A stretch of DNA of 64,000 bases from Myxococcales bacterium (lineage in GTDB: Bacteria; Myxococcota; Myxococcia; Myxococcales; Anaeromyxobacteraceae). Position numbers and translations under genes: made by a program. Below are positions 20,593-42,590 of the stretch, one piece after another (the first letter of the stretch is position 1; each line of letters starts with the position of its first letter). Location: positions 73,764-137,763 of the forward strand of contig JAJZQX010000012.1 in NCBI GenBank assembly GCA_021806645.1. Direction: 5' to 3'. The notes under the pieces were generated by a model. It made no database searches. It was not told where the DNA came from and saw only the letters and a program-made list of their open reading frames with translations.

Positions 20593-21894
20593 ATGAACGC
20601 CCCCGCGTCGCACCGGGCTCCAATGCCACGGTGCGGCGCGCCCGCTCCAATGGCCGACCCGTCCATGCCGACGCCCGAAGCACCAGCAGCGCCCGCGCCG
20701 CGCGTTCGCCCCCCACCGAGCCTGGGGCGCCGGGTCTTCAGCGTGGTTTCCTCGCCGCGGCTGGCCATCGCGCTGCTCATCGTCGTGCTGGCCTGCTGCG
20801 TGGTGGGCGTCACAGTCTTCACGCCGGAGCCGGCTTGGCGGCTCATCTTCAACACGCTCTGGTTCAACGGCCTGCTGGTGCTGCTGGCGCTCAGCTCGGG
20901 CGTCACCTTCCTGGCCCGCACCTGGGGCCGGAAGCTCACGCTGGTCTCCGTGGGTATGATCCTGTTCCACGTGAGCTTCATGAGCCTGCTGGGCGGCGTG
21001 GTCTTCAACAGCTTGTTCCACTTCAAGGGCGTGCTGCGGCTCACGGAAGGCGAGATCCTGCCCAACGGCGATCCCGCCAGCTACGACACCGTCGATGCTG
21101 GGCGCTTCTTCGACTTCACCCGCCTCCGCGGCGAGACCACCCTGGTCAAGATGCACCGCGGCTACAAGGTGGACGGGCAGGACAAGCGGGCCGCCTACGA
21201 GATCGCCGTCGGCGAGGGGTCGTCGAAGACGACGGGAATCATCTACATGACGCAGAACCTGGACTACCGCGGCGTGCGGTACCTGGTCTCCAAGGAGGGG
21301 TACTCGATCGGCGTCGTCCTCCACGACAAGCAGGGACGCGAGCTGTACGCGGCCATGGTCCCGCTGCAGAGCCTGCAGCGGGGCGAGAACGCCCACCTCT
21401 ACACCACCGGCTCCGCGCTGGCGCCAGGCGCCTTTCCGTTCCCGCCGCCGCCGGACTCCGCCGCGCTCCTGCTCCAGGTGGGGTACGTGCCCGATCAGCG
21501 GAAGGAGCGGGCCGGGCAGGTCGAGTTCTTCACCTGGCCGGTGAGCCAGGCGGTCGCTGGCCACGACGGTGCCAGGGGCGCGGGGCACGCGTCCGGCCAG
21601 GCCGCGTCGATCGGGGGCGGCAAGGACACGGAGCCTGCCGCCTCGGGCAAGGTGGCCGTCGGCGGCACCTTCGACGCCGGCGACTACAAGCTCGAGGCGA
21701 GAGAGGTGCGGTACTGGGTCGGCATGACGGTACGACGCGACCCCGGTCTGACCGTCATCCTCTCCAGCCTCTGGGCGGGGCTGGCAGGCATGACCATGAC
21801 CTTCATCGGACGGATCGTGCAAGACTCGAAGCGAGGCAAGCGCGAGGCGAGCAGCTCTGAACCGGGCGCGACAGCGCCGAAGGGGGTCCCATGA
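20593..21894 (+). CDS. resB: System II cytochrome c biogenesis protein ResB/Ccs1 (CcsB)
   Basis: VFSVVSSPRLAIALLIVVLACCVVG...WFNGLLVLLALS...LFHFKGVLRLTEGE.. is a typical ResB N-terminus, and there is a C-terminal TM segment. The stop overlaps the ccsA ATG (ATGA). The start could be any of several Met codons between 20593 and 20665. Confidence 0.8.
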   Translation: MNAPASHRAPMPRCGAPAPMADPSMPTPEAPAAPAPRVRPPPSLGRRVFSVVSSPRLAIALLIVVLACCVVGVTVFTPEPAWRLIFNTLWFNGLLVLLALSSGVTFLARTWGRKLTLVSVGMILFHVSFMSLLGGVVFNSLFHFKGVLRLTEGEILPNGDPASYDTVDAGRFFDFTRLRGETTLVKMHRGYKVDGQDKRAAYEIAVGEGSSKTTGIIYMTQNLDYRGVRYLVSKEGYSIGVVLHDKQGRELYAAMVPLQSLQRGENAHLYTTGSALAPGAFPFPPPPDSAALLLQVGYVPDQRKERAGQVEFFTWPVSQAVAGHDGARGAGHASGQAASIGGGKDTEPAASGKVAVGGTFDAGDYKLEAREVRYWVGMTVRRDPGLTVILSSLWAGLAGMTMTFIGRIVQDSKRGKREASSSEPGATAPKGVP

Positions 21895-22715
21895 ACGTCG
21901 AGCAGGTGCTGTTCTGGTGCGCCGTCGGATTCTACGGGCTGAGCGCGTTCGCCTACGTCTTCGGCTTCATCGCCGAGAACGAGAAGCTGCTCTCTGGGGG
22001 GCTGGCCACGGCCGTGCTCGGGTTCGCCGCCCACCTGACCAGCATCGCCCTCCGCTGGGTGACGAGCAGCGTGACGCCGTTCATCACCATCTCCGAGTCG
22101 CTCGCCCTCGGGACCCTCATGGCGATGGCCCTCTTCCTCATCCTCCAGGCCTCGAACAGGAAGGTCCGGCCGCTCGGTGTCTTCGTGCTGCCGGTGGTCT
22201 TCGTGCTCATCGGGTGGGCCGGCACGCTGCGGGCGGCCTCCGGATCCCAGCTCGCCCCGGCGCTGCAGAGCGGCTGGCTCTGGGCGCACATCGTCGGCGC
22301 CACCATCGGCTTCAGCGCGGTGCTGATGGCGGCGGGGCTGGCGATGATGTTCCTGCTCAGGGAGAACCGGTCGGGGGGGATCTACGACCGGCTGCCGTCG
22401 CCGGCCGACCTCGACCGGCTGGCCTACCGGTTCGTCGCCGCCGGTTTCATCATGTACGGCCTCATGATCGTCACCGGGGCGCTCTGGGCCGACCAGGCCA
22501 AGGGCAGCTACTGGAACTGGGACCCGGTCGAGGTCTGGTCGCTGGTCTCCTGGCTCATCTACGGCATCTACCTCCACCTGCGCATCACCATGGGCTGGCG
22601 CGGGCGGAGGCTGGCCTGGTACGCGCTGGCGGCGGTGGCGGTGATGATCGTCAGCTACTGGGGCATCCCGTTCTCGGTCGAGACCTTCCACAAGGGCTTC
22701 CGCGTCGAGCACTAG
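21891..22715 (+). CDS. ccsA: System II cytochrome c biogenesis haem lyase subunit CcsA/ResC
   Basis: Polytopic membrane protein with the W-rich haem-handling motif (WADQAKGSYWNWDPVEVWS) and conserved His residues. Confidence 0.9.
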   Translation: MNVEQVLFWCAVGFYGLSAFAYVFGFIAENEKLLSGGLATAVLGFAAHLTSIALRWVTSSVTPFITISESLALGTLMAMALFLILQASNRKVRPLGVFVLPVVFVLIGWAGTLRAASGSQLAPALQSGWLWAHIVGATIGFSAVLMAAGLAMMFLLRENRSGGIYDRLPSPADLDRLAYRFVAAGFIMYGLMIVTGALWADQAKGSYWNWDPVEVWSLVSWLIYGIYLHLRITMGWRGRRLAWYALAAVAVMIVSYWGIPFSVETFHKGFRVEH

Positions 22716-28383: not shown

Positions 28384-29745
28384 TTGAAGCTCTGCATCAT
28401 CAAGCCACCGCTTCCCTTCGGCTGGACGCCGGTGGCGCCGCCCATCCTCGAGTACCTGGCGGCGCTCACCCGCCAGGCCGATCCCAGCATCGACATCGAG
28501 GTCTACAGCGCCAGCGCCACGCCGGACGTCTTCGACACCCTGGAGTGCGATCTGGCGGCCATCAGCCTGCTGACGCCGACCTCCGTCCCCGGCTACCGGA
28601 TCGCCGACGGGCTGCGGGCGCGCGGCATCAAGGTGGTGGTCGGCGGCATGCACGCCACGGCCCTGCCGGAGGAGGCCAAGCTCCACGCCGACGCGGTGGT
28701 GACCGGCGAGGCCGAGTCGGTCTGGCCGCGGGTGCTCGCCGACTTCCGCGCCGGCACGCTGCAGCCCTTCTACAGGGGCGAGCAGCTCCCGCTCGAAGGC
28801 CTGCCCACACCGCTCTACGGCCTGCTGAAGCACGGCCACGACTTCCGCATCGTCAACACCGCCCGCGGCTGCCCGTACCCGTGCAGCTTCTGCACGGTGA
28901 GGAAGGTCTTCGGCTCCAAGATCCGCATGCGCCCCATCGACGACGTGGTGCGCGACGTGGACGCCATGCCGGGCGGCATGTACATCAACGGCGACGAGAA
29001 CATCTGGTGGCTGGGCAAGACCGACCGGGCCATCGAGCTCTTCACCGCGCTGCGGGGGAGCAAGAAGAAGTGGATGGGCTTCGGCAGCCTGGCGCCGGTC
29101 CTCTCTCCCGATGGCTCGCGCATGCTCAAGGCGGCCAGGGCGAGCGGGATGCTGACGGTCTGGGTCGGGTGGGAGTCGATCACCGACGGCGGGCTCGAGG
29201 AGTACCGCGCCGACCGGAAGGTGGGGATCGACCGCGAGCGCGCGGTCCGGACCTTGAAGGACCACGGCATCGACGTCTCGCTCTTCTTCATGCTCGGCTC
29301 GCGCGCCGACTCGCTCGACGACTACCACCGCGCCGTGGACCTGGCCGACCGGCTCGGCGTGAGCATGCACCCGTCGCTGGTGGTCCCGTATCCCGGCACC
29401 GACCTGCGCAAGGAGTACCAGCCCTACCTCTACAAGGAGCTGGGCTGGGAGTACTACACCGGGGCCTACGCGCTCTTCGAGCACCCGGACCCGGGCATGA
29501 CCCCCGAGGTGCGGGAGGAGCGGTTCTACGAGACCTCGCTGGAACTGCTCAAGCTGGGACGGATCTGGAAGCACATGTTCAAGGTCCCGGCCTCGGGCTT
29601 TCCCCACGCCCACATCCTCTCGCTGATGAACCAGCTCCCGGTCCGCAAGGGGATGAAGATCGCCTTCGAGAAGTGGAAGGAATCGAAGCAGGCCGTGCGC
29701 GAGAAGCAGGCACGGCCCGGGGCCGACTCCGCCCTCACCGGATAG
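28384..29745 (+). CDS. B12-binding-domain radical SAM protein (COG1032 class)
   Basis: TTG start with GGAGGAG 4 nt upstream. N-terminal Rossmann-like B12 domain (AISLLTPTSVPGYRIADGLRARGIKVVVGGMHAT). Radical SAM cluster motif CPYPCSFC (CX3CX2C). Confidence 0.85.
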   Translation: MKLCIIKPPLPFGWTPVAPPILEYLAALTRQADPSIDIEVYSASATPDVFDTLECDLAAISLLTPTSVPGYRIADGLRARGIKVVVGGMHATALPEEAKLHADAVVTGEAESVWPRVLADFRAGTLQPFYRGEQLPLEGLPTPLYGLLKHGHDFRIVNTARGCPYPCSFCTVRKVFGSKIRMRPIDDVVRDVDAMPGGMYINGDENIWWLGKTDRAIELFTALRGSKKKWMGFGSLAPVLSPDGSRMLKAARASGMLTVWVGWESITDGGLEEYRADRKVGIDRERAVRTLKDHGIDVSLFFMLGSRADSLDDYHRAVDLADRLGVSMHPSLVVPYPGTDLRKEYQPYLYKELGWEYYTGAYALFEHPDPGMTPEVREERFYETSLELLKLGRIWKHMFKVPASGFPHAHILSLMNQLPVRKGMKIAFEKWKESKQAVREKQARPGADSALTG

Positions 29746-29822: not shown

Positions 29823-31319
29823 ATGCCGACTCCCACAGCCGCCACCACCGACCTGTCCGGCCCCGCCCTCGAGCGTCACCGGCTCACCGAGGAGGTCCTC
29901 GGCTACATCGAGGCCGGCGTGGACGCCGAGGTCCCCGACTTCAACGGCTCCTGCCTGCGGATGTTCGCCCTGCACTACGAGGTGAACCCGATCTTCCGCG
30001 AGTTCTGTGACGTCAAGAAGGTCCGCCCCGGCGACGTGACGCGCTGGCAGGACGTCCCGCTGGTCTACAACGACATGTTCAAGACCCACCTGGTGGCCTC
30101 CTTCCCGCTGGAGAAGGCGGTCATGGGCTGCCTCACCGGCGGCACCACCAGCCTCACGCAGCGCGGCCGGATCTTCCGCGACGAGGAGGGGAAGAAGCTG
30201 GTCTTCGGCGCCAACAAGCGGATGACCGGCGCCTACCTCTTCCCCGACTTCGAGGAGGGCAAGCGCTGCCGCATCCTCATCCTCGCCCCCAGCCCGGAGA
30301 TGGCCCCGTCGATGGGCATGGCCATCGGCATGGAGCAGACGCGGACCCACTTCGGCACGCCCGACAGCCAGTTCCTGCTGGGCCGGACCGGGATCGACGT
30401 CAACGGTCTCTTGAAGGCGCTGCGAGAGGCGGAGGCGAGCGGCGTGCCGGTGGCGATCATCGGCGCCACCTCCGCGTACGTCTACTTCTTCCAGGCCTGC
30501 AAGCGGAAGAGGTGGAGCTTCAAGCTGCCGAAGGGGAGCCGGGTCTGCGACGGCGGCGGCTACCGCGGTCGCTTCGGGACCGTCACCCGCGACGACTACT
30601 ACGCCATGGTGGAGGCGACGCTCGGGGTCCCGTCCTCCCACTGCGTCAACGTGCTCGGCGAGGCCGAGACCGCCACCAACCTGTTCGACGACGCGCTCCG
30701 CCGCCACGTCCAGGGGCTGCCGCCGCGGGACCGGATCCGCCCGGTGCCGCCCTGGTCGCGCGTGCTGGCCATGGACATCGACACGCTCGAGCCGCTCCCC
30801 GACGGGAAGGTCGGGCTGATGGCCCACTGGGACCTCGCCAACGTCCCCACCGTGCTGGCGGTCATCACCGACAACCTCGGGTACACCGCCGACCAGGGGC
30901 GCGCCTGCGAGATCGTGGGGCGGGCCAAGCTCGAGGGCGGCAAGGTCTCGCCGCTGCCCGACGAGCGCCCGATCGGAGGCATGGGAGACTCGGCCATCTT
31001 CCGGATGCTCGAGACCTACGTGAACTTCTCCATCGACCTGAAGATGCTCACGGCCAAGGCGCCCCCGGCCGAGCCGAGCACGCGCGAGGAGATCGAGGCC
31101 CGTCCGGGCTCGGTCGCCTCCTGCCCGCAGGTGGTGGACGAGATCCTGGTCTCGCAGGGCAACGAGGACGCCGCGCGCCAGCGCGACGCGTCGCTGCGGA
31201 CGTTCAAGGACCAGACCGAGCGTCCCATGGAGTGGTTCGTCGAGCAGGCCAGGAAGCAGAAGCTCGCGGACCACCCGGCCGGTCTCCAGTCGGAGGAGCC
31301 GGGGCCCAACAAGCTGTAG
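29823..31319 (+). CDS. LuxE-like acyl-protein synthetase / adenylate-forming enzyme (ANL/PaaK-like superfamily)
   Basis: N-terminus F..LHYEVNPIFREFCD...RWQDVPLVYNDMFKTH...CLTGGTTSLTQRG matches the LuxE layout as I recall it. There is a ~100-aa C-terminal extension. ATG at 29823 within ORF 28545..31319. Confidence 0.65.
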   Translation: MPTPTAATTDLSGPALERHRLTEEVLGYIEAGVDAEVPDFNGSCLRMFALHYEVNPIFREFCDVKKVRPGDVTRWQDVPLVYNDMFKTHLVASFPLEKAVMGCLTGGTTSLTQRGRIFRDEEGKKLVFGANKRMTGAYLFPDFEEGKRCRILILAPSPEMAPSMGMAIGMEQTRTHFGTPDSQFLLGRTGIDVNGLLKALREAEASGVPVAIIGATSAYVYFFQACKRKRWSFKLPKGSRVCDGGGYRGRFGTVTRDDYYAMVEATLGVPSSHCVNVLGEAETATNLFDDALRRHVQGLPPRDRIRPVPPWSRVLAMDIDTLEPLPDGKVGLMAHWDLANVPTVLAVITDNLGYTADQGRACEIVGRAKLEGGKVSPLPDERPIGGMGDSAIFRMLETYVNFSIDLKMLTAKAPPAEPSTREEIEARPGSVASCPQVVDEILVSQGNEDAARQRDASLRTFKDQTERPMEWFVEQARKQKLADHPAGLQSEEPGPNKL

Positions 31320-31412: not shown

Positions 31413-32252
31413 TCACCCAGCCAGACCAGCCCGCCGCAGGCTGCGGTGTACGGACCGGAAGACGCCGTCGAACTCGGGCAGCTCGACCATCTGGGCGGCG
31501 AGGCGCGCGCCCCAGAGCTTCTTCAGGCGGGATTCCTTCTTTTGGAACTCCTCGCCGAGCGTCGCCAAGGCTCTGCCCCGGAACTCGAGCTTCCTTTCCA
31601 CCTCGGCCTTGAGGTGGTCGAGGTCCACGTGCCCGCCGGTCGTCAGGTGCCAGATGTCGTAGAGGTCACGGGGCTCGTTGCGCGCGCGGTCGCCGAGCGC
31701 CACGACCTTCTCCACGGAGATCTCATCGAGCGAGTACACACGCACGGTCGCGCCGTCCGGCAAGTCCTCGTACTACCCGTAGCCGCGGACGACGGGTCGA
31801 TCCACGAGCGGGGTTACCAGGCACTCGCGGATGGTGACGTCGACCTTCACCTCGCGGGCCGTGCGCGAGGGGAGCGGTCCGTCGTAGCCCAGGTAGAAAG
31901 TGTGGCTGTTCAGGTGCCGTTGGCGGTCCTCCCGATCGAAGCGGAACAGGAGGCCGGAGGCCCGCCGCACCTCCTTGAAGACTGGCTCGAGCTCGGCGTG
32001 GAGGGCCTCGAAGGGGACCTCCTCCGTCAGCGTGAAGTCGAGGTCCTCGGAGAAGCGGTAGTCGCCGAAGTAGCAGCGCTTGATGGCCGTCCCGCCCTTG
32101 AACGCGAGCCGCTCCCGAAGCGGCGCACGGGACAGGCCCACGAGGAACCACGCCAGGCAGTAATCCCGCTCGAGCACGGCCTCCGGGATTCGTCGGCCGC
32201 CTTCACGCGCGAGCCGGTTGGACAGGAGGGAGATGTTTCGGTGGGGGATCAT
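31413..32252 (-). pseudogene. abiEii: AbiEii/AbiGii-family nucleotidyltransferase toxin (type IV TA) interrupted by one in-frame TAG at 31773-31775
   Basis: ORFs 31773..32252 and 31413..31763 are in the same frame. The junction reads GYG-TAG-YEDLPDGATVRVYSLDE. Motifs: AFKGGTAIKRCY...RFSEDLDF. Confidence 0.8.
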
Positions 32253-32256
32253 CGGC

Positions 32257-33102
32257 TCACGTGCTCCGGACCGCCGTGAGTTCCTCCGTGCTCACGTTGA
32301 GACGGAGCCGCCAGCGAGCCACGCGATGGCCCTCGACCGGAAGGGTGGGATCGAGCAGCTGATACGTGGCGGTGAGCCTCGCGCGCAGCCGTGCGATGGC
32401 TGCCGGCTCGTCGACCCCGCACGTTTCGAGCAGGAAGCCGAGCCGGCGGATGACGGCGCCGACATCGAGACGGATCGCGTAGTCGACGAGCCGCCCGATG
32501 TTCATGTCGCCCCTTCGCATCCAGAAGCCCTTGGCCACTTCGACGATGCCGCCGCAGTATCCGGGCTGCTTGAGGCCGTCGATGACCGTGCGCTCCAGGT
32601 CGCTCACGATGACCTTCTCGGTCTTGTCGACCCAGTGCTCGACCAGGCCGAAGAGGTGCTCCGCCTTGCATCGGACGAAGCGGAACTCGGTGCCGAGAAT
32701 GGTCCGCCGCCGAAGCGGGAGGGGGCTTGTCACGTAGACGACAAACTGTGGCTGCGTGACCATCCGGTGCATGTCCATGGCCGAAGCGTGCGACAGGTAG
32801 TAGTCGCGTCCGCCCGCGAGCGCGCGCGCGACAATGTTCGGGTTGCCGAGGTACTCGCGTTCACGCCCAAGTTCGAAAGGCACCAGTATGAACAGACCGG
32901 GCTTGAGGCGGGTCGCCACACCCCGCCGGACGAGTTTTCCCACGAAGTTCCGCGTGGTCTTGGGCCCGAGGCCCGTGACCTCCTGGACATCGCCGACCGT
33001 GAAGATGGTTCGTCGCTTCTCGTGGAGTGCCGCGAGGAGCCTGGCCGCTTGTGGGCCGAGCGTCTTCTGTTGGCTCAGCCCTTCGTGAGTATTCGTCTGC
33101 AT
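32257..33102 (-). CDS. abiEi: AbiEi-family antitoxin / transcriptional regulator (type IV TA)
   Basis: ATG at 33102 (MQTNTHEGLSQQ...). N-terminal wHTH (IFTVGDVQEVTGLGPKTTRNFVGKLVRRGV) and an AbiEi C-terminal domain. It stops 4 nt before the abiEii start. An AT-richer promoter region lies at 33103-33270. Confidence 0.8.
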   Translation of the reverse strand: MQTNTHEGLSQQKTLGPQAARLLAALHEKRRTIFTVGDVQEVTGLGPKTTRNFVGKLVRRGVATRLKPGLFILVPFELGREREYLGNPNIVARALAGGRDYYLSHASAMDMHRMVTQPQFVVYVTSPLPLRRRTILGTEFRFVRCKAEHLFGLVEHWVDKTEKVIVSDLERTVIDGLKQPGYCGGIVEVAKGFWMRRGDMNIGRLVDYAIRLDVGAVIRRLGFLLETCGVDEPAAIARLRARLTATYQLLDPTLPVEGHRVARWRLRLNVSTEELTAVRST

Positions 33103-33275
33103 CGTGCCCGCCACCAGGATGTAATCTGCGATAGAAGTATCACGACCGCAGAAGAAGAGATAGTTCGATGCTCCAATGCCCTTCCTCAGGGCGACTATTG
33201 CACCCAAGCTATCACCAGGGTTTGGTGAGAGCACCGACGCCAACCGTGGGGCGCGCTGGAGCGTGCGGCCGAAGG

Positions 33276-33626
33276 TCACCCATGGACCAACAGGTACTGG
33301 TACAGCGTGCCGGCCGCGAAGACCACGCCGAGCAGGGCGTGCTTCACCTTGAGGAGCTGGATCCGGCTCCGCTCCATGTCCCCGGTCCAGCCGAAGACCT
33401 TCCAGGTGACCATGCGGACCACGCCGGTGGCCACGATGACGGCCAGGCTCACCCAGGTGACCACCAGGAACTTCCGCTCCAGCCCCGGGACCAGGGGGCC
33501 GGCCAGCAGCCAGGCGGGCCGCTGGGTCTCGCGGTGGAGCATGGTGAGCAGGATGAGCGTGCCGATCCACGTGCCGGTCGCCACGTCGTGGACGAAGGCG
33601 TTGAGGATGGTGAGCCGGTCCCGCAT
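33276..33626 (-). CDS. Small integral membrane protein (3-4 TM helices), function unknown
   Basis: Hydrophobic helices (WIGTLILLTML, FLVVTWVSLAVIVATGVV, ALLGVVFAAGTLYQYLL). Codon usage matches neighbouring genes. It is divergent from radical SAM gene 2. Confidence 0.55.
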   Translation of the reverse strand: MRDRLTILNAFVHDVATGTWIGTLILLTMLHRETQRPAWLLAGPLVPGLERKFLVVTWVSLAVIVATGVVRMVTWKVFGWTGDMERSRIQLLKVKHALLGVVFAAGTLYQYLLVHG

Positions 33627-33806
33627 CGGGCTCGAAGTGTATCACCAGGGTGGGCGGCTGTAGTCTTGACGGTAAGCAACCAGTTGCTCGATGTAGGCCT
33701 AAGCACGGCGTTCTCCACCTGCCGCCGGGATGCCCCGGGCGGGCCGGGCGTGGTAAAGTGATCATCCCCGGTCGAACGGGGTCCGTTACTTCAGGAGAGC
33801 CCGAAG

Positions 33807-35321
33807 ATGACCGCTCGCCGTCCTCGAGTCCTGCTCGTCACCGCGCCGTATCACTCGGGTGTGGTCGAGTCGGCCGGCGTCTGGATGCCACTCAACTTCG
33901 CGTACGTGGCGGGGGCCGCCCGGAAGGCCGGCGCCGAGGTCGAGATCTACGACGCGATGAGCCTCTTCGCCTCGCACGACGACATCCGGAAGAAGATCGA
34001 GGCCTTCAAGCCCGATCTGATCGGCACCACCGCCATCACCGCCACCGAGCCCGACTGCCGCGTCATCTGCGCCACGGCCAAGGCCTGGAACCCGGCGGTG
34101 AAGACCATCATCGGCAACGTCCACGCCACCTTCTGCTGGGAGCAGATCCTCCGCGACGACCCCAACGTGGACTTCGTGGTCCGCGGCGAGGGCGAGCTGA
34201 CCATCATGGAGCTGGTCAAGGCGATCGAGGCGGGCGAGGGCTGGGACCGGATCGACGGCCTGGCCTGGCGCAAGGACGGCCACCCGGTGACCAACGGCCC
34301 GCGCGCGCTGCAGGCCGACATCGACTTCGTCACGCCCGCCTGGGATCTCGTGGACTGGCCGCTCTACTACTACCGGCCCCGGCCGCACGGCCGCCTCGCC
34401 ATCGCCAACTCGGCGCGCGGCTGCTCGTCGCGCTGCAGCTTCTGCTCGCAGCAGAAGTTCTGGGGGCGCAGCTGGCGCGGGCGGGATCCGCTCAAGTTCG
34501 TCTCAGAGCTGGAGCACCTGCGGGACACCTACGGCGTGGCCGTGACCATGCTCTCCGACGAGACGCCCACCTCCGACGGGGCGCGCTGGGAGGCGATCCT
34601 CGACCTGATGATCGAGCGGCAGACCGGCGTCGAGATCCTGATGGAGACCCGCGTGGACGACGTGATCCGCGACGAGCCGGTCCTGTCCAAGTACGTCAAG
34701 GCGGGGATCAGCCACATCTACGTGGGGGTCGAGTCCACCAACCAGTCCACGCTCGACATGTACCACAAGGACATCAAGGTCAACCAGTCGAAGAAGGCCA
34801 TCGATCTCATCAACCAGCACGGCATGGTGAGCGAGACCTCCTTCGTGCTCGGCACGCCCGACGAGACCGCCGCCTCCATCCGCAAGACGGTCGAGCTGGC
34901 CAAGTGGTACGCGCCGGACATGGCCTTCTTCCTGGCGCTGACGCCGTGGCCCTACGCCGAGATCGCCGGCGAGCTCGACGGGCACGTCGCCACCCGCGAC
35001 TACCGGCGCTACAACCTGGTCGAGCCGGTCATGAAGCCGGACAACATGACGATGGAGGAGGTCCAGAGGGAGCTCCACCGCGCCACCGGCCACTTCTTCC
35101 ACGACAAGTTCCAGAACCTTCACAAGCTCTCGCCGGAGAAGCGGGCCTTCATGGTGAGCGTGCTCAAGCTGCTCATCGAGAAGAGCTACCTCGGCCAGGA
35201 GATGAAGCACATGGCCAGCGGCGCCGAGATGCCGGAGTCGGTCCGCAAGATGCTGGCCGAGCTCGGCCCCATCACCGGGCCGGTGGCCGGCGGTCCGGGA
35301 ACCAGCCGGAAGGCGGGGTGA
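33807..35321 (+). CDS. B12-binding-domain radical SAM protein (BchE/HpnJ-like COG1032 class)
   Basis: N-terminal B12-type domain (LIGTTAITATEPDCRVICATAKAWNPAVKTIIGNVHAT). Cluster motif CSSRCSFC (CX3CX2C). Confidence 0.85.
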   Translation: MTARRPRVLLVTAPYHSGVVESAGVWMPLNFAYVAGAARKAGAEVEIYDAMSLFASHDDIRKKIEAFKPDLIGTTAITATEPDCRVICATAKAWNPAVKTIIGNVHATFCWEQILRDDPNVDFVVRGEGELTIMELVKAIEAGEGWDRIDGLAWRKDGHPVTNGPRALQADIDFVTPAWDLVDWPLYYYRPRPHGRLAIANSARGCSSRCSFCSQQKFWGRSWRGRDPLKFVSELEHLRDTYGVAVTMLSDETPTSDGARWEAILDLMIERQTGVEILMETRVDDVIRDEPVLSKYVKAGISHIYVGVESTNQSTLDMYHKDIKVNQSKKAIDLINQHGMVSETSFVLGTPDETAASIRKTVELAKWYAPDMAFFLALTPWPYAEIAGELDGHVATRDYRRYNLVEPVMKPDNMTMEEVQRELHRATGHFFHDKFQNLHKLSPEKRAFMVSVLKLLIEKSYLGQEMKHMASGAEMPESVRKMLAELGPITGPVAGGPGTSRKAG

Positions 35322-35324
35322 CGC

Positions 35325-35771
35325 GTGGCTGGGGCGGGGCGCTGGGGCGCGCGGCGCGCCGTCGCGCTCGCGCTGCTGGGCTCGCTCGGCGCGGTGGCCG
35401 GCTGCGCCGGGATCTTCGGTCCGCGCCGCCCCTGGGTCGAGTTCACGCCCTACCCCGAGTCGCAGGTGGCCGGGGTGCGCGACCCGCACGACTACCTCGG
35501 CAAGCCGCTCTGCCAGCGCTGTCACCTGCCCGGTCGTGGGGGTCTGACCAGCGGCGCCATCTCGCTCTGCGTGAGCTGCCACGCCTTCGGCCACGGCAAC
35601 CACCCGGTGGACGTGGTCCAGAAGGCGCCGGCCACGGGGATCCCGCTGCTGGAGGGCGGGCGGGTGGCCTGCCACAGCTGCCACGATCCGCATGACCTGA
35701 AGCGCAACCGGGCGGGCTTGCGCTTCCCCTTCACCGAGCTCTGCCTCCGCTGCCACACCCGCCACGCGTAG
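35325..35771 (+). CDS. Tetrahaem c-type cytochrome lipoprotein (c3/c7-like)
   Basis: GTG start 3 nt after the radical SAM stop. Lipobox GAVAGC. Four CXXCH motifs: CQRCH, CVSCH, CHSCH, CLRCH. Confidence 0.8.
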   Translation: MAGAGRWGARRAVALALLGSLGAVAGCAGIFGPRRPWVEFTPYPESQVAGVRDPHDYLGKPLCQRCHLPGRGGLTSGAISLCVSCHAFGHGNHPVDVVQKAPATGIPLLEGGRVACHSCHDPHDLKRNRAGLRFPFTELCLRCHTRHA

Positions 35772-35787
35772 CCGGCGTGGCGCTCGC

Positions 35788-40688: not shown

Positions 40689-42590
40689 TCAGTAGGAGAG
40701 CGAGCTGTGCGGCTTGCCGTGGCAGACCAGGGCGCAGGAACCCCCGCGCCCACCGCTGGCGGTGTAGCGCGGAGCGGCCTGGCCGGGCAACGCCTTCACC
40801 ACGTCGAGGTCGAAGTCCACGAGGTGGGCGTTGTTGGCCGGGGAGCCGACCAGCGAGGAGACGCCGTGGGCGTTGTGGCAGGCCGAGCATGGGGTGGGGA
40901 TGGCGCCGGCCAGCGTCGCGGAGGCGCCGGGCGAGACGTGGCCCTGGTGGAGCGGGAAGGAGGACTGCGTCGAGAGGACGGTCTCGCGCCTGTGGCACTT
41001 GTAGCAGAGCGCGTAGGCGACGGGGCTCTCCGGCGTGCCGTCCTGCGTCTGGTAGTTCCGCTCCAGCAAGGGGCGGTAGATGGAGCCGTGCGGCCCGCGC
41101 GGACCGGTGCCGCCGCTGGCCCGCGTGTCGTCGGAGGCGTGGCAGTCGGAGCAGTAGATGACCGATGACGCCGTGAGCGGGGCGATCAGGCTCGGCACCA
41201 CCGGGTTGCGGCCGGGTCCGATGACCGGGTGGGCGGAAGCGCCGCTCGGCTCGAAGACGCGGCGCAGGTTCACCTCGGCCACGGCCCGCCGCGGGGAGCC
41301 GGCGCCCAGCGCGGCGCGCGCCTGCGGCTGGTTGGCGCTGTCGGCGTGGCACTTGAAGCAGACCTCGTATTCGTACCTGGCGGGGTCGGCCCGGCGCCCG
41401 GTCCGATCGACGCCCCAGGTGCCGGCCATGGCACCCTGGATGGCCGGGGCGACCGCCGCCCTGGCTCCGGTGGCCTGGTGCGGTTCGTGGCAATCGACGC
41501 AGGTGACGTGGCGAGCGGCCGACGGCGAGGTCTCTGGGAGGCGGACGGCACGGTCCGGTCCCTCGGCCCGGTCGTGGACGGTCGTGCCGGTGATGGGGGC
41601 GGCGTGGGCGGATGGGCGGAGCGTGGCGCCGCGGATGTCGGCCCTGGCGTGCTGGCCGTCGTGGCACGCCAGGCACATGCCGTCGTCGCCGAGATCGGTC
41701 GGGCGCACCAGCCGGCCGCGCTTGTCTCCATTGTGCGGCACGTGGCACGCGGCGCAGCGCAGGTCGGCCAGCGTGGTGGAGGCTCCGGTCACGGGATCGC
41801 TGATGGTCCTGGTCGAGGTCAGGTGGGACGCGTCGGGCGACTCCAGGCGCGCGGCGTCGTGGCAGGTGAGGCAGAGCTCGGCGCGGCGCATGCTCTTGAC
41901 CAGGAACTGGCCCTCGCCGGTCACCGGGAGCCGCTCCCGGTGAGGGTCGTGGCAGGCGACGCACTGCAACTGGTTGGTCCGGTCGAGCCGGACCGGATCG
42001 TCCGGCGGCGGCGGGTGGGAGGTCGCCGACGGCGCCGGCACGAAGGAGACGGGGTGGGTCCCGCGCAGGTCGGTGCCGAGGTTGGCGCGGTGGCCGGCAG
42101 GGAGCCTGCCGCCGGGAGCGTTGCCGCGCAGCTGGATCAGCCGGGTGCGGGTCTGGCCGAGGGCGATGGTCCCGTCGTGGCACGAGAGGCAGATCCGCGA
42201 GGCTCCGGTGGGGCGGGAGGTGGTGCGGGCGCTGGTGGTGCTGCTCGTGTAGGGGATGATCGGAGCGGACTCGGCCGGGCGCCCATCGGCATGCTCGCCG
42301 CCGTGCGGCACATGGCAGAAGACGCAGGCGTTGGCCTCCACGTCCGACTTGAAGGGGCCAGGGCCGCTGGTCGAGAGGTCGTGCTTGCTGCCGATGACGC
42401 CGAGCGGCGCCGCGCCGGCGCGCGGCGCGACCTGTTGGGCCGCCGGCGAGGGGGGGCGCCGGGGTCGGGCGGAGGCGCCGGCCGGCGCGGGGGACGCCGT
42501 GGCGGGCGGGCGCGGCGCGACGGGCTCGCGGGCCGGAAGGTCCGGGTTGATCGGCGCCGCGAGGGCGGTCAGCAGGATCAGCAGCTTCAT
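40689..42590 (-). CDS. Multihaem c-type cytochrome (11 CXXCH plus a C-terminal CX3CH) with a Pro/Ala-rich N-terminal linker
   Basis: Signal-like MKLLILLTALAA. First motif GSKHDLS...CVFCHVPHGG, then CLSCH, CVACH, CLTCH, CAACH, CLACH, CVDCH, CFKCH, CSDCH, CYKCH, CSACH, and CALVCH (nt 40719-40736). Confidence 0.85.
   Translation of the reverse strand: MKLLILLTALAAPINPDLPAREPVAPRPPATASPAPAGASARPRRPPSPAAQQVAPRAGAAPLGVIGSKHDLSTSGPGPFKSDVEANACVFCHVPHGGEHADGRPAESAPIIPYTSSTTSARTTSRPTGASRICLSCHDGTIALGQTRTRLIQLRGNAPGGRLPAGHRANLGTDLRGTHPVSFVPAPSATSHPPPPDDPVRLDRTNQLQCVACHDPHRERLPVTGEGQFLVKSMRRAELCLTCHDAARLESPDASHLTSTRTISDPVTGASTTLADLRCAACHVPHNGDKRGRLVRPTDLGDDGMCLACHDGQHARADIRGATLRPSAHAAPITGTTVHDRAEGPDRAVRLPETSPSAARHVTCVDCHEPHQATGARAAVAPAIQGAMAGTWGVDRTGRRADPARYEYEVCFKCHADSANQPQARAALGAGSPRRAVAEVNLRRVFEPSGASAHPVIGPGRNPVVPSLIAPLTASSVIYCSDCHASDDTRASGGTGPRGPHGSIYRPLLERNYQTQDGTPESPVAYALCYKCHRRETVLSTQSSFPLHQGHVSPGASATLAGAIPTPCSACHNAHGVSSLVGSPANNAHLVDFDLDVVKALPGQAAPRYTASGGRGGSCALVCHGKPHSSLSY

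Follow-up and report, generated by a model that had tools for sequence, protein, structure and literature searches.

A cobalamin (B12)-binding radical S-adenosylmethionine (SAM) enzyme of 504 amino acids (aa) was analysed, together with the genes around it, in a stretch of 64,000 nucleotides (nt) from a Myxococcales bacterium of the family Anaeromyxobacteraceae (contig JAJZQX010000012.1 of assembly GCA_021806645.1); this whole stretch is referred to here as the window. Three open reading frames (ORFs) had been proposed at the locus in a first-pass annotation, namely the radical SAM ORF, an ORF for a lipoprotein with four CXXCH motifs directly downstream of it and a divergently oriented ORF for a small membrane protein, and all of them are present, as shown in Table 1. 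The stop codon of the enzyme gene and the GTG start of the tetrahaem cytochrome gene lie 3 nt apart on the same strand, which is the normal operon spacing of a compact, high-GC genome, and because the cytochrome gene is co-oriented and follows at this distance, it is probably co-transcribed with the enzyme gene in the window. The first-pass annotation had called this an unusual pairing of enzyme and cytochrome, which could point to the modification of a cofactor for the chain of extracellular electron transfer (EET) or to a redox link.

Table 1. Features of the enzyme locus and of the wider cluster in the window (positions count from the first nucleotide of the window).
Feature	Position	Strand	Remarks
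ResB-like protein	20593-21894	+	PF05140 28.8 bits, cutoff 24.6
Variant CcsA (haem exporter/lyase)	21891-22715	+	PF01578 130 bits
First B12 radical SAM gene	28384-29745	+	Domain matches
LuxE-like adenylating enzyme	29850-31319	+	Domain matches
AbiEii/AbiEi cassette	31413-33150	-	PF08843 in two pieces, PF13338; between LuxE and membrane-protein gene
Three-helix membrane protein, 116 aa	33276-33626	-	ORF real and conserved
Divergent intergenic region, 180 nt	33627-33806		TTGACG 33666-33671; inverted repeat 33675-33688; TGGTAAAGTGA 33751-33761
B12-binding radical SAM enzyme, 504 aa	33807-35321	+	ATG 33807, TGA 35319-35321; AGGAGA 7-12 nt 5' of start
Tetrahaem c-type cytochrome lipoprotein, 148 aa	35325-35771	+	GTG start 35325

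The enzyme matches the PF02310 B12-binding domain (88.3 bits) and the PF04055 Radical_SAM domain (66 bits), and the cluster motif CX3CX2C reads CSSRCSFC at aa 206-213 and is invariant across 20 relatives, which confirms the earlier assignment to the cobalamin-type (class B) radical SAM proteins. It is a cytoplasmic cobalamin/[4Fe-4S] protein. Its order of domains, with B12-binding at the N-terminus and then the radical SAM core, is that of BchE too, the anaerobic Mg-protoporphyrin IX monomethyl ester oxidative cyclase, and the BchE model TIGR02026 was the best NCBIfam match (392.7 bits over model positions 1-457 of 497), though it remained below the curated cutoff of 481.35. The next-best family was HpnR, with 144.9 bits against a cutoff of 650, while HpnJ reached 104.1 bits (cutoff 577.6) and TIGR04072, the nearest lipid model, 95.5 bits (cutoff 360); the libraries searched hold no Tes/Grs models. 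BchE was the top match for all 20 sampled homologues, which come from at least nine phyla and have 76 invariant columns in common, and this uniform preference points to a tetrapyrrole-type enzyme. A PDB sequence search with the enzyme returned remote class B matches only (best E = 7e-13), and the tree of the enzyme mostly tracks phyla.

The genome to which the window belongs is 4.14 Mb in size and 99% complete, and the enzyme is its single BchE-like gene. No match to BchH was found in this genome, the best BchM match scored 47.9 bits against a cutoff of 158.9, and no squalene-hopene cyclase was detected there. With BchH absent and BchM below its cutoff, the substrate of BchE is not made by this bacterium, and in a genome with neither these two genes nor a hopene cyclase the enzyme cannot be BchE or an enzyme of the hopanoid pathway. 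The resemblance to HpnJ and BchE that the first-pass annotation had suggested examining, and that to HpnR, thus does not extend to membership, as all scores fall under the cutoffs and the pathway genes are absent. The genomic context is another difference from BchE, being that of cytochrome c maturation and not of photosynthesis. Judging from these comparisons, the enzyme represents an uncharacterised sister family of BchE. Public sources often label the family 'anaerobic Mg-protoporphyrin IX monomethyl ester cyclase', and such 'BchE cyclase' labels are wrong for this gene in non-phototrophs.

Enzyme homologues with 44-92% identity were collected from 80 loci (labelled L) of about ten phyla, which cover Anaeromyxobacteraceae, other Myxococcota, Acidobacteriota, Lentisphaerota, Binatota, Nitrospirota, Elusimicrobiota, Ignavibacteriota/Bacteroidota, Bacillota and Geobacter, and 40 related genomes (labelled G), 25 of them from the same family, were searched over the whole genome. 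A tblastn census of the 80 loci found CcsA in 42, the small membrane protein in 39, 11-haem-type cytochromes in 32, ResB in 28 and NHL-repeat proteins in 20. In a second count, every neighbouring ORF was clustered in an unbiased manner, all against all, and the same families were recovered: CcsA in 39 loci of 10 phyla, the membrane protein in 31 loci of seven phyla, and ResB, the 11-haem cytochrome and the NHL protein in 31, 21 and 17 loci, respectively, each from eight phyla. The typical order is NHL protein, multihaem cytochrome, ResB, CcsA, the membrane protein in part of the loci, and the enzyme, and the end of the CcsA gene lies less than 100 nt before the start of the enzyme gene in 13 loci. 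The census across these phyla bears out the tie of the enzyme to a cytochrome and EET gene set that had been proposed from the window. It is likely that the enzyme belongs to a module formed with CcsA, ResB and the small membrane protein and that its position beside the tetrahaem lipoprotein gene is incidental. The link between enzyme and cytochromes drawn in the first-pass annotation therefore stands in part, running through CcsA/ResB and the small membrane protein and not through the tetrahaem lipoprotein. Full-text literature searches found no published description of an association of the enzyme with a CcsA/ResB module.

The 116-aa membrane protein is the most faithful small partner of the enzyme; its gene adjoins the enzyme gene in 31-39 of the 80 loci, and the protein is encoded in 11 of the 12 enzyme-carrying genomes of the family. 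It belongs to a large family, with at least 1374 homologues at 90% clustering and at least 411 representative clusters at 50%, and the residues H13, D14, G68, R71, K95, H96 and G106 are invariant. In the AlphaFold2 model, which has a mean predicted local distance difference test (pLDDT) score of 90.5, the chain forms three long helices. The protein missed the cutoffs of the CopD models (PF05425, 17.2 bits vs 32.1; NF033808, 25.7 vs 195), and no precomputed Pfam domain was found on its homologues. In a reciprocal test, two distant relatives of the membrane protein (25-27% identity) were again located beside B12 radical SAM and CcsA genes, with ResB halves, a MacB-type ATP-binding cassette (ABC) transporter and FtrD-like proteins nearby.

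Three homologues (P0249, P0250 and P0279) carry C-terminal fusions, with NHL/PKD/TSP3 domains (1083 aa), a SurA-like peptidyl-prolyl isomerase (434 aa) and a PsbP/DcrB-like domain (296 aa), and the fused domain families also occur as separate genes in EET clusters. All of the fused C-terminal domains are extracytoplasmic, which indicates an N-in, C-out topology, and three helices with the C-terminus outside would place H13/D14, R71 and K95/H96 in the inner leaflet. The resulting cluster of two histidines with Arg and Lys would be comparable to the two-His transmembrane haem site known from CcsBA, for which specialised types have also been described (PMC10663686).

The ResB and CcsA proteins of the window have the features of a System II synthase, including the WWD motif, which is present in a variant form. 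The canonical CcsA motif is WG..W.WDPKE, while the window copy reads AKGSYWNWDPVE; five CcsA-family genes were counted in the genome, and three of them have the usual WDPKE. Among 37 enzyme-adjacent CcsA genes, 35 carry WDP[I/V/M/L]E, and the two exceptions, with WDPKE, are second copies located further from the enzyme. Solved structures of CcsBA place the WWD residues at the vinyl edge of the haem (PMC10663686). An extra ResB/CcsA pair beside presumed client cytochromes, in a genome with several CcsA paralogues, resembles the dedicated System II synthases (CcsBA/ResBC), such as those of Wolinella, where specialised CcsA paralogues serve CXXCK and CX15CH sites. The present set differs from these in its WDP[I/V/M/L]E motif, which replaces WDPKE, and in its 11-haem partners, which are without an atypical haem motif. 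We know of no System II set that includes a radical SAM enzyme or a three-helix protein with two histidines.

The 11-haem cytochrome family (for example at 40689-42590 of the window, minus strand) has a conserved lone Cys near the C-terminus, often within N-C-Y, and one member of the family has CX7CH at its sixth site. Unusual haem motifs were considered as the reason for a dedicated CcsA and were rejected, with 11 ordinary CXXCH motifs and the one conserved lone Cys being found.

The explanation that we favour, with a probability of roughly 55%, is that the enzyme performs an accessory step of haem tailoring or haem handling that serves a dedicated System II module. From the cytoplasmic side of the membrane, the enzyme would work on a small hydrophobic compound, with haem or a late tetrapyrrole as the likeliest candidate; the small membrane protein would hold this substrate through its inner-leaflet His/His and Arg/Lys site, and the variant CcsA/ResB would export the compound and join it to the cytochromes encoded in the cluster. 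A sister subfamily of the enzyme (Thermodesulfovibrio-type, ~650 aa; L053, L052, L072, L050, L076, L083 and L084) has a fused C-terminal SRPBCC/Polyketide_cyc2 domain, at least one SRPBCC-fused relative adjoins membrane-protein and ResB/CcsA genes, and at L081 a stand-alone SRPBCC gene is located beside a B12 radical SAM gene. With this fusion and the separate gene, a small hydrophobic compound is a better candidate for the substrate than a protein. Family resemblance and gene context suggest haem or another tetrapyrrole, which we rate as possible at a little less than even odds. The first-pass annotation had named a quinone, a lipid or a haem-related cofactor as candidates; the haem-related one fits best, and no quinone or lipid biosynthesis genes were found among the ranked conserved neighbours of the enzyme when the 80 loci were clustered. 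In a more specific form of the proposal, which we put forward only tentatively, the enzyme would make an altered haem, by C-methylation or by oxidation or cyclisation of a side chain, that the variant CcsA/ResB exports for some of the EET cytochromes. The three-helix protein might then hold the substrate in the inner leaflet, and WDP[I/V/M/L]E would stand at the site where CcsA contacts the haem edge.

Several observations weigh against an accessory haem step. Genomes of the same genus that are without the enzyme retain their cytochromes, from which it follows that the step is either dispensable or serves only some cytochromes; it is accessory, and cytochrome maturation in general can do without it. 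Members of the genus have lost the enzyme, LuxE and the window-type CcsA separately, and co-occurrence of the enzyme with either of the other two is not strict; neither a cytochrome nor a CcsA gene adjoins about 15 homologues of the Thermodesulfovibrio type. The client sequences demand no special chemistry, as the 11-haem partners have no conserved atypical haem motif. The fold search with the membrane protein was not significant (best match SdhC, E = 0.5), and the SRPBCC domain and the membrane partner would be compatible with a lipid or quinone as the substrate as well.

This last point leads to an alternative in which the target of the enzyme is a membrane lipid, lipid anchor or quinone for EET, tailored together with the LuxE-like enzyme and the first radical SAM protein, the adjacency to CcsA reflecting co-regulation only. 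Besides the membrane partner and the SRPBCC/START-like domain fused in the sister subfamily, it is favoured by the weaker matches to HpnR, HpnJ and the ladderane-type lipid radical SAM family and by the LuxE-like gene adjacent in some loci. HpnJ/HpnR and Tes/Grs share the B12-binding radical SAM type with the enzyme, and their substrates are hydrophobic molecules of the membrane. However, LuxE was found in only four of the 80 loci, the conserved neighbourhood is devoid of lipid and quinone genes, as noted above, and the 393 bits of the BchE match compare with at most 145 for any lipid-related family; the enzyme is far under the cutoffs of both HpnJ and HpnR, and its genome has no hopene cyclase. 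The known menaquinone C-methylases, moreover, are class C radical SAM enzymes and not class B. Overall, we consider a lipid or quinone substrate unlikely.

An enzyme that supplies haem, either as a HemW-like chaperone to the variant CcsA or as an oxygen-independent late step of haem synthesis beside the exporter, would draw on the same gene-context evidence as the accessory haem step, but we judge it distinctly improbable. In its favour, HemJ is a small b-haem, CopD-like membrane protein that works with coproporphyrinogen oxidase, and HemW and HemJ/HemN offer a parallel of a radical SAM protein tied to haem delivery or late tetrapyrrole chemistry and a small His-bearing CopD-like membrane protein. 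HemW itself is described as a radical SAM family haem chaperone (NCBIfam TIGR00539). The parallel has its limits, as HemW and HemN are class C (HemN-like) proteins without a B12 domain, the enzyme scores only 19 bits with the HemW model, and the membrane protein fails the CopD cutoffs. An essential step of haem synthesis is not compatible with close relatives that have lost the enzyme and still have dozens of haem sites, and the strict conservation of the cluster cysteines together with the 76 invariant columns suggests real catalysis and not mere binding.

The tetrahaem lipoprotein was at the centre of the first-pass annotation. The 148-aa ORF has the motifs, the distal histidines and the export signal expected of a multihaem cytochrome c: its four CXXCH motifs lie at aa 63-67, 82-86, 116-120 and 140-144, the predicted signal peptide ends in the lipobox AVAG↓C (Cys27), and the match to Paired_CXXCH_1 (29.2 bits) passes the cutoff of 20.6. 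Across 14 homologues, the four CXXCH motifs and H55, H93 and H123 are invariant and H117 is almost so. A PDB sequence search with the cytochrome gave no significant match, and its AlphaFold model is poor (mean pLDDT 61).

A dedicated pair, in which this cytochrome is the client or redox partner of the enzyme and translational coupling sets their ratio, would account for the 3-nt gap on the same strand, and a gap of ≤5 nt recurs in L002, L027 and L045. A tetrahaem homologue follows the enzyme directly, at 0-60 nt, in 11 of the 35 evaluable loci of the Myxococcota-type clade (≥60% identity), and these 11 include a Binatota genome and groundwater Deltaproteobacteria. However, the pair is missing from the other 24 loci of the clade, and none of the 36 evaluable loci beyond it has the cytochrome in this place. 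The two genes have also been lost singly. In G001 and G006, which belong to the same genus, the enzyme gene is missing (window ~33756-35331), whereas the tetrahaem and membrane-protein genes are adjacent and intact; the flanks of the deletion align to the window with 82-85% nt identity in G001 and 70-83% in G006, and the retained cytochromes show 79% and 65% aa identity (tblastn), respectively. The reverse is found in G012 (L001), again of this genus, where the enzyme is 92% identical and the cytochrome gene is deleted (35410-35772), leaving an 85-nt remnant of its 5' part, with no cytochrome copy anywhere else in the genome. Among the 25 family genomes, five have both genes, seven the enzyme only, seven the cytochrome only and six neither, so there is no association between them. 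Haem potentials, furthermore, are far too high to reduce a radical SAM cluster. The first-pass annotation had itself stated that a coupling not conserved in relatives would count against the pairing, and a pair that is patchy in one clade, absent elsewhere and broken up by single losses is no longer tenable as a conserved unit; we regard it as very improbable. The tetrahaem lipoprotein is, by its distribution, apparently a clade-limited passenger, gained and lost independently of the enzyme, and probably serves the EET cluster as an ordinary electron carrier, anchored by lipid in the periplasm. The key partner of the enzyme in the window is not this lipoprotein.

Several genomes of the same genus carry a second BchE-like paralogue that is 38-41% identical to the enzyme, and the copy in G001 (L088, contig C10 133225-134754) contains two in-frame TAG codons. 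This paralogue was considered as a stand-in for the lost enzyme and was rejected, as its contexts in G001 and G006 are unrelated to cytochromes and one copy is interrupted by stops.

That the enzyme merely lies by chance within a large, rearranging EET island is scarcely credible: though the island is a mosaic with frequent insertions and deletions (toxin-antitoxin and AbiE cassettes, gene losses) and some enzyme homologues occur in unrelated contexts, the order CcsA, (membrane protein), enzyme recurs in about ten phyla with gaps of 0-100 nt, and a placement within 6 kb of one of the few CcsA genes of a 4-5 Mb genome would be expected, as a rough estimate, in less than about 1% of cases.

Metal respiration, 'nanowire' conduction and electrode-based biotechnology depend on multihaem cytochromes, the maturation of which is thought to require the Ccm or CcsBA machinery only. 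A B12 radical SAM enzyme and a new two-His protein in dedicated CcsBA operons of about ten phyla would mean that a step, possibly a haem-modifying one, has been overlooked. If such an extra step exists, it could explain the difficult heterologous expression and the unexpected redox properties of such cytochromes. If, in addition, an altered haem is made, cytochrome c biogenesis would have a branch that was not known before, and a new kind of haem c would exist.

The window holds the same conserved set as the other loci, split by toxin-antitoxin modules and by the AbiE cassette. It had been suggested from the window that, without the AbiE insertion, the enzyme locus would directly adjoin the pair formed by the first radical SAM gene and the LuxE gene, and this arrangement was indeed seen in L035, L046, L086 and G004. 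The cassette is missing from the equivalent site in L035, L046 and L086; L035 displays an uninterrupted series of ResB, CcsA, the first radical SAM gene, LuxE, the membrane protein and the enzyme, and at most 400 nt separate LuxE from the membrane-protein gene in L046, L086, G004 and G014. In the cultured strain Anaeromyxobacter oryzae Red232, one region (NZ_AP025591.1:6665395-6678876) encodes the tetrahaem cytochrome, an enzyme homologue of 80% identity, the membrane protein and LuxE. In the cassette of the window, the AbiEii toxin gene (31413-32252, minus strand) is divided by one in-frame stop into the ORFs 31773-32252 and 31413-31763 and is therefore probably a pseudogene, while the AbiEi gene (32257-33150) appears intact. 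An exact 12-nt direct repeat, TATCACCAGGGT, occurs at 33210-33221 and 33640-33651, on either side of the membrane-protein gene; these two matches are the only ones in the whole window, where 0.12 would be expected by chance. The repeat was considered as a mark of the AbiE insertion and was rejected, as its copies bracket the membrane-protein gene and not the cassette.

The divergent spacer between the membrane-protein and enzyme genes contains the perfect inverted repeat AGCAAC-CA-GTTGCT, which the first-pass annotation had placed at about 33689-33702, 14 nt away from its actual site (Table 1). A comparable repeat arises in 41% of shuffles of the 180-nt spacer, so its presence is not above chance, and it is only partly retained in L001 and L002, the two nearest relatives, in which only TGGTAAAGTGA and GATGTAGG of the spacer are retained. 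A consensus scan of the spacer detected no sigma-70-type promoter, and an Rfam search matched no RNA element.

Five more B12-binding radical SAM paralogues are clustered 54-67 kb upstream of the window start (G000 contig C2, ~6.5-19.6 kb), and their identity to the first radical SAM gene is 31-35%. This first gene aligns in two or three pieces in G006 (L086 13785-14999), as does LuxE in G012 (contig C14 179725-181187) and G023 (contig C55 74044-75406), which suggests frameshifts or decay of the module, with assembly errors in metagenome-assembled genomes as the alternative. The distant modules at L081 and L083 are free of cytochrome genes within 8 kb and encode a MacB-type ABC transporter, ResB-like proteins of half size and FtrD-like membrane proteins with an N-terminal FTR1-like (R/K)EG(L/F)(E/K) motif, with a thioredoxin-like protein in L081 only. 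Finally, a TldD/PmbA metalloprotease pair is located directly after the enzyme gene in two Bacillota loci (L068 7485-10401 and L073 7499-10218).

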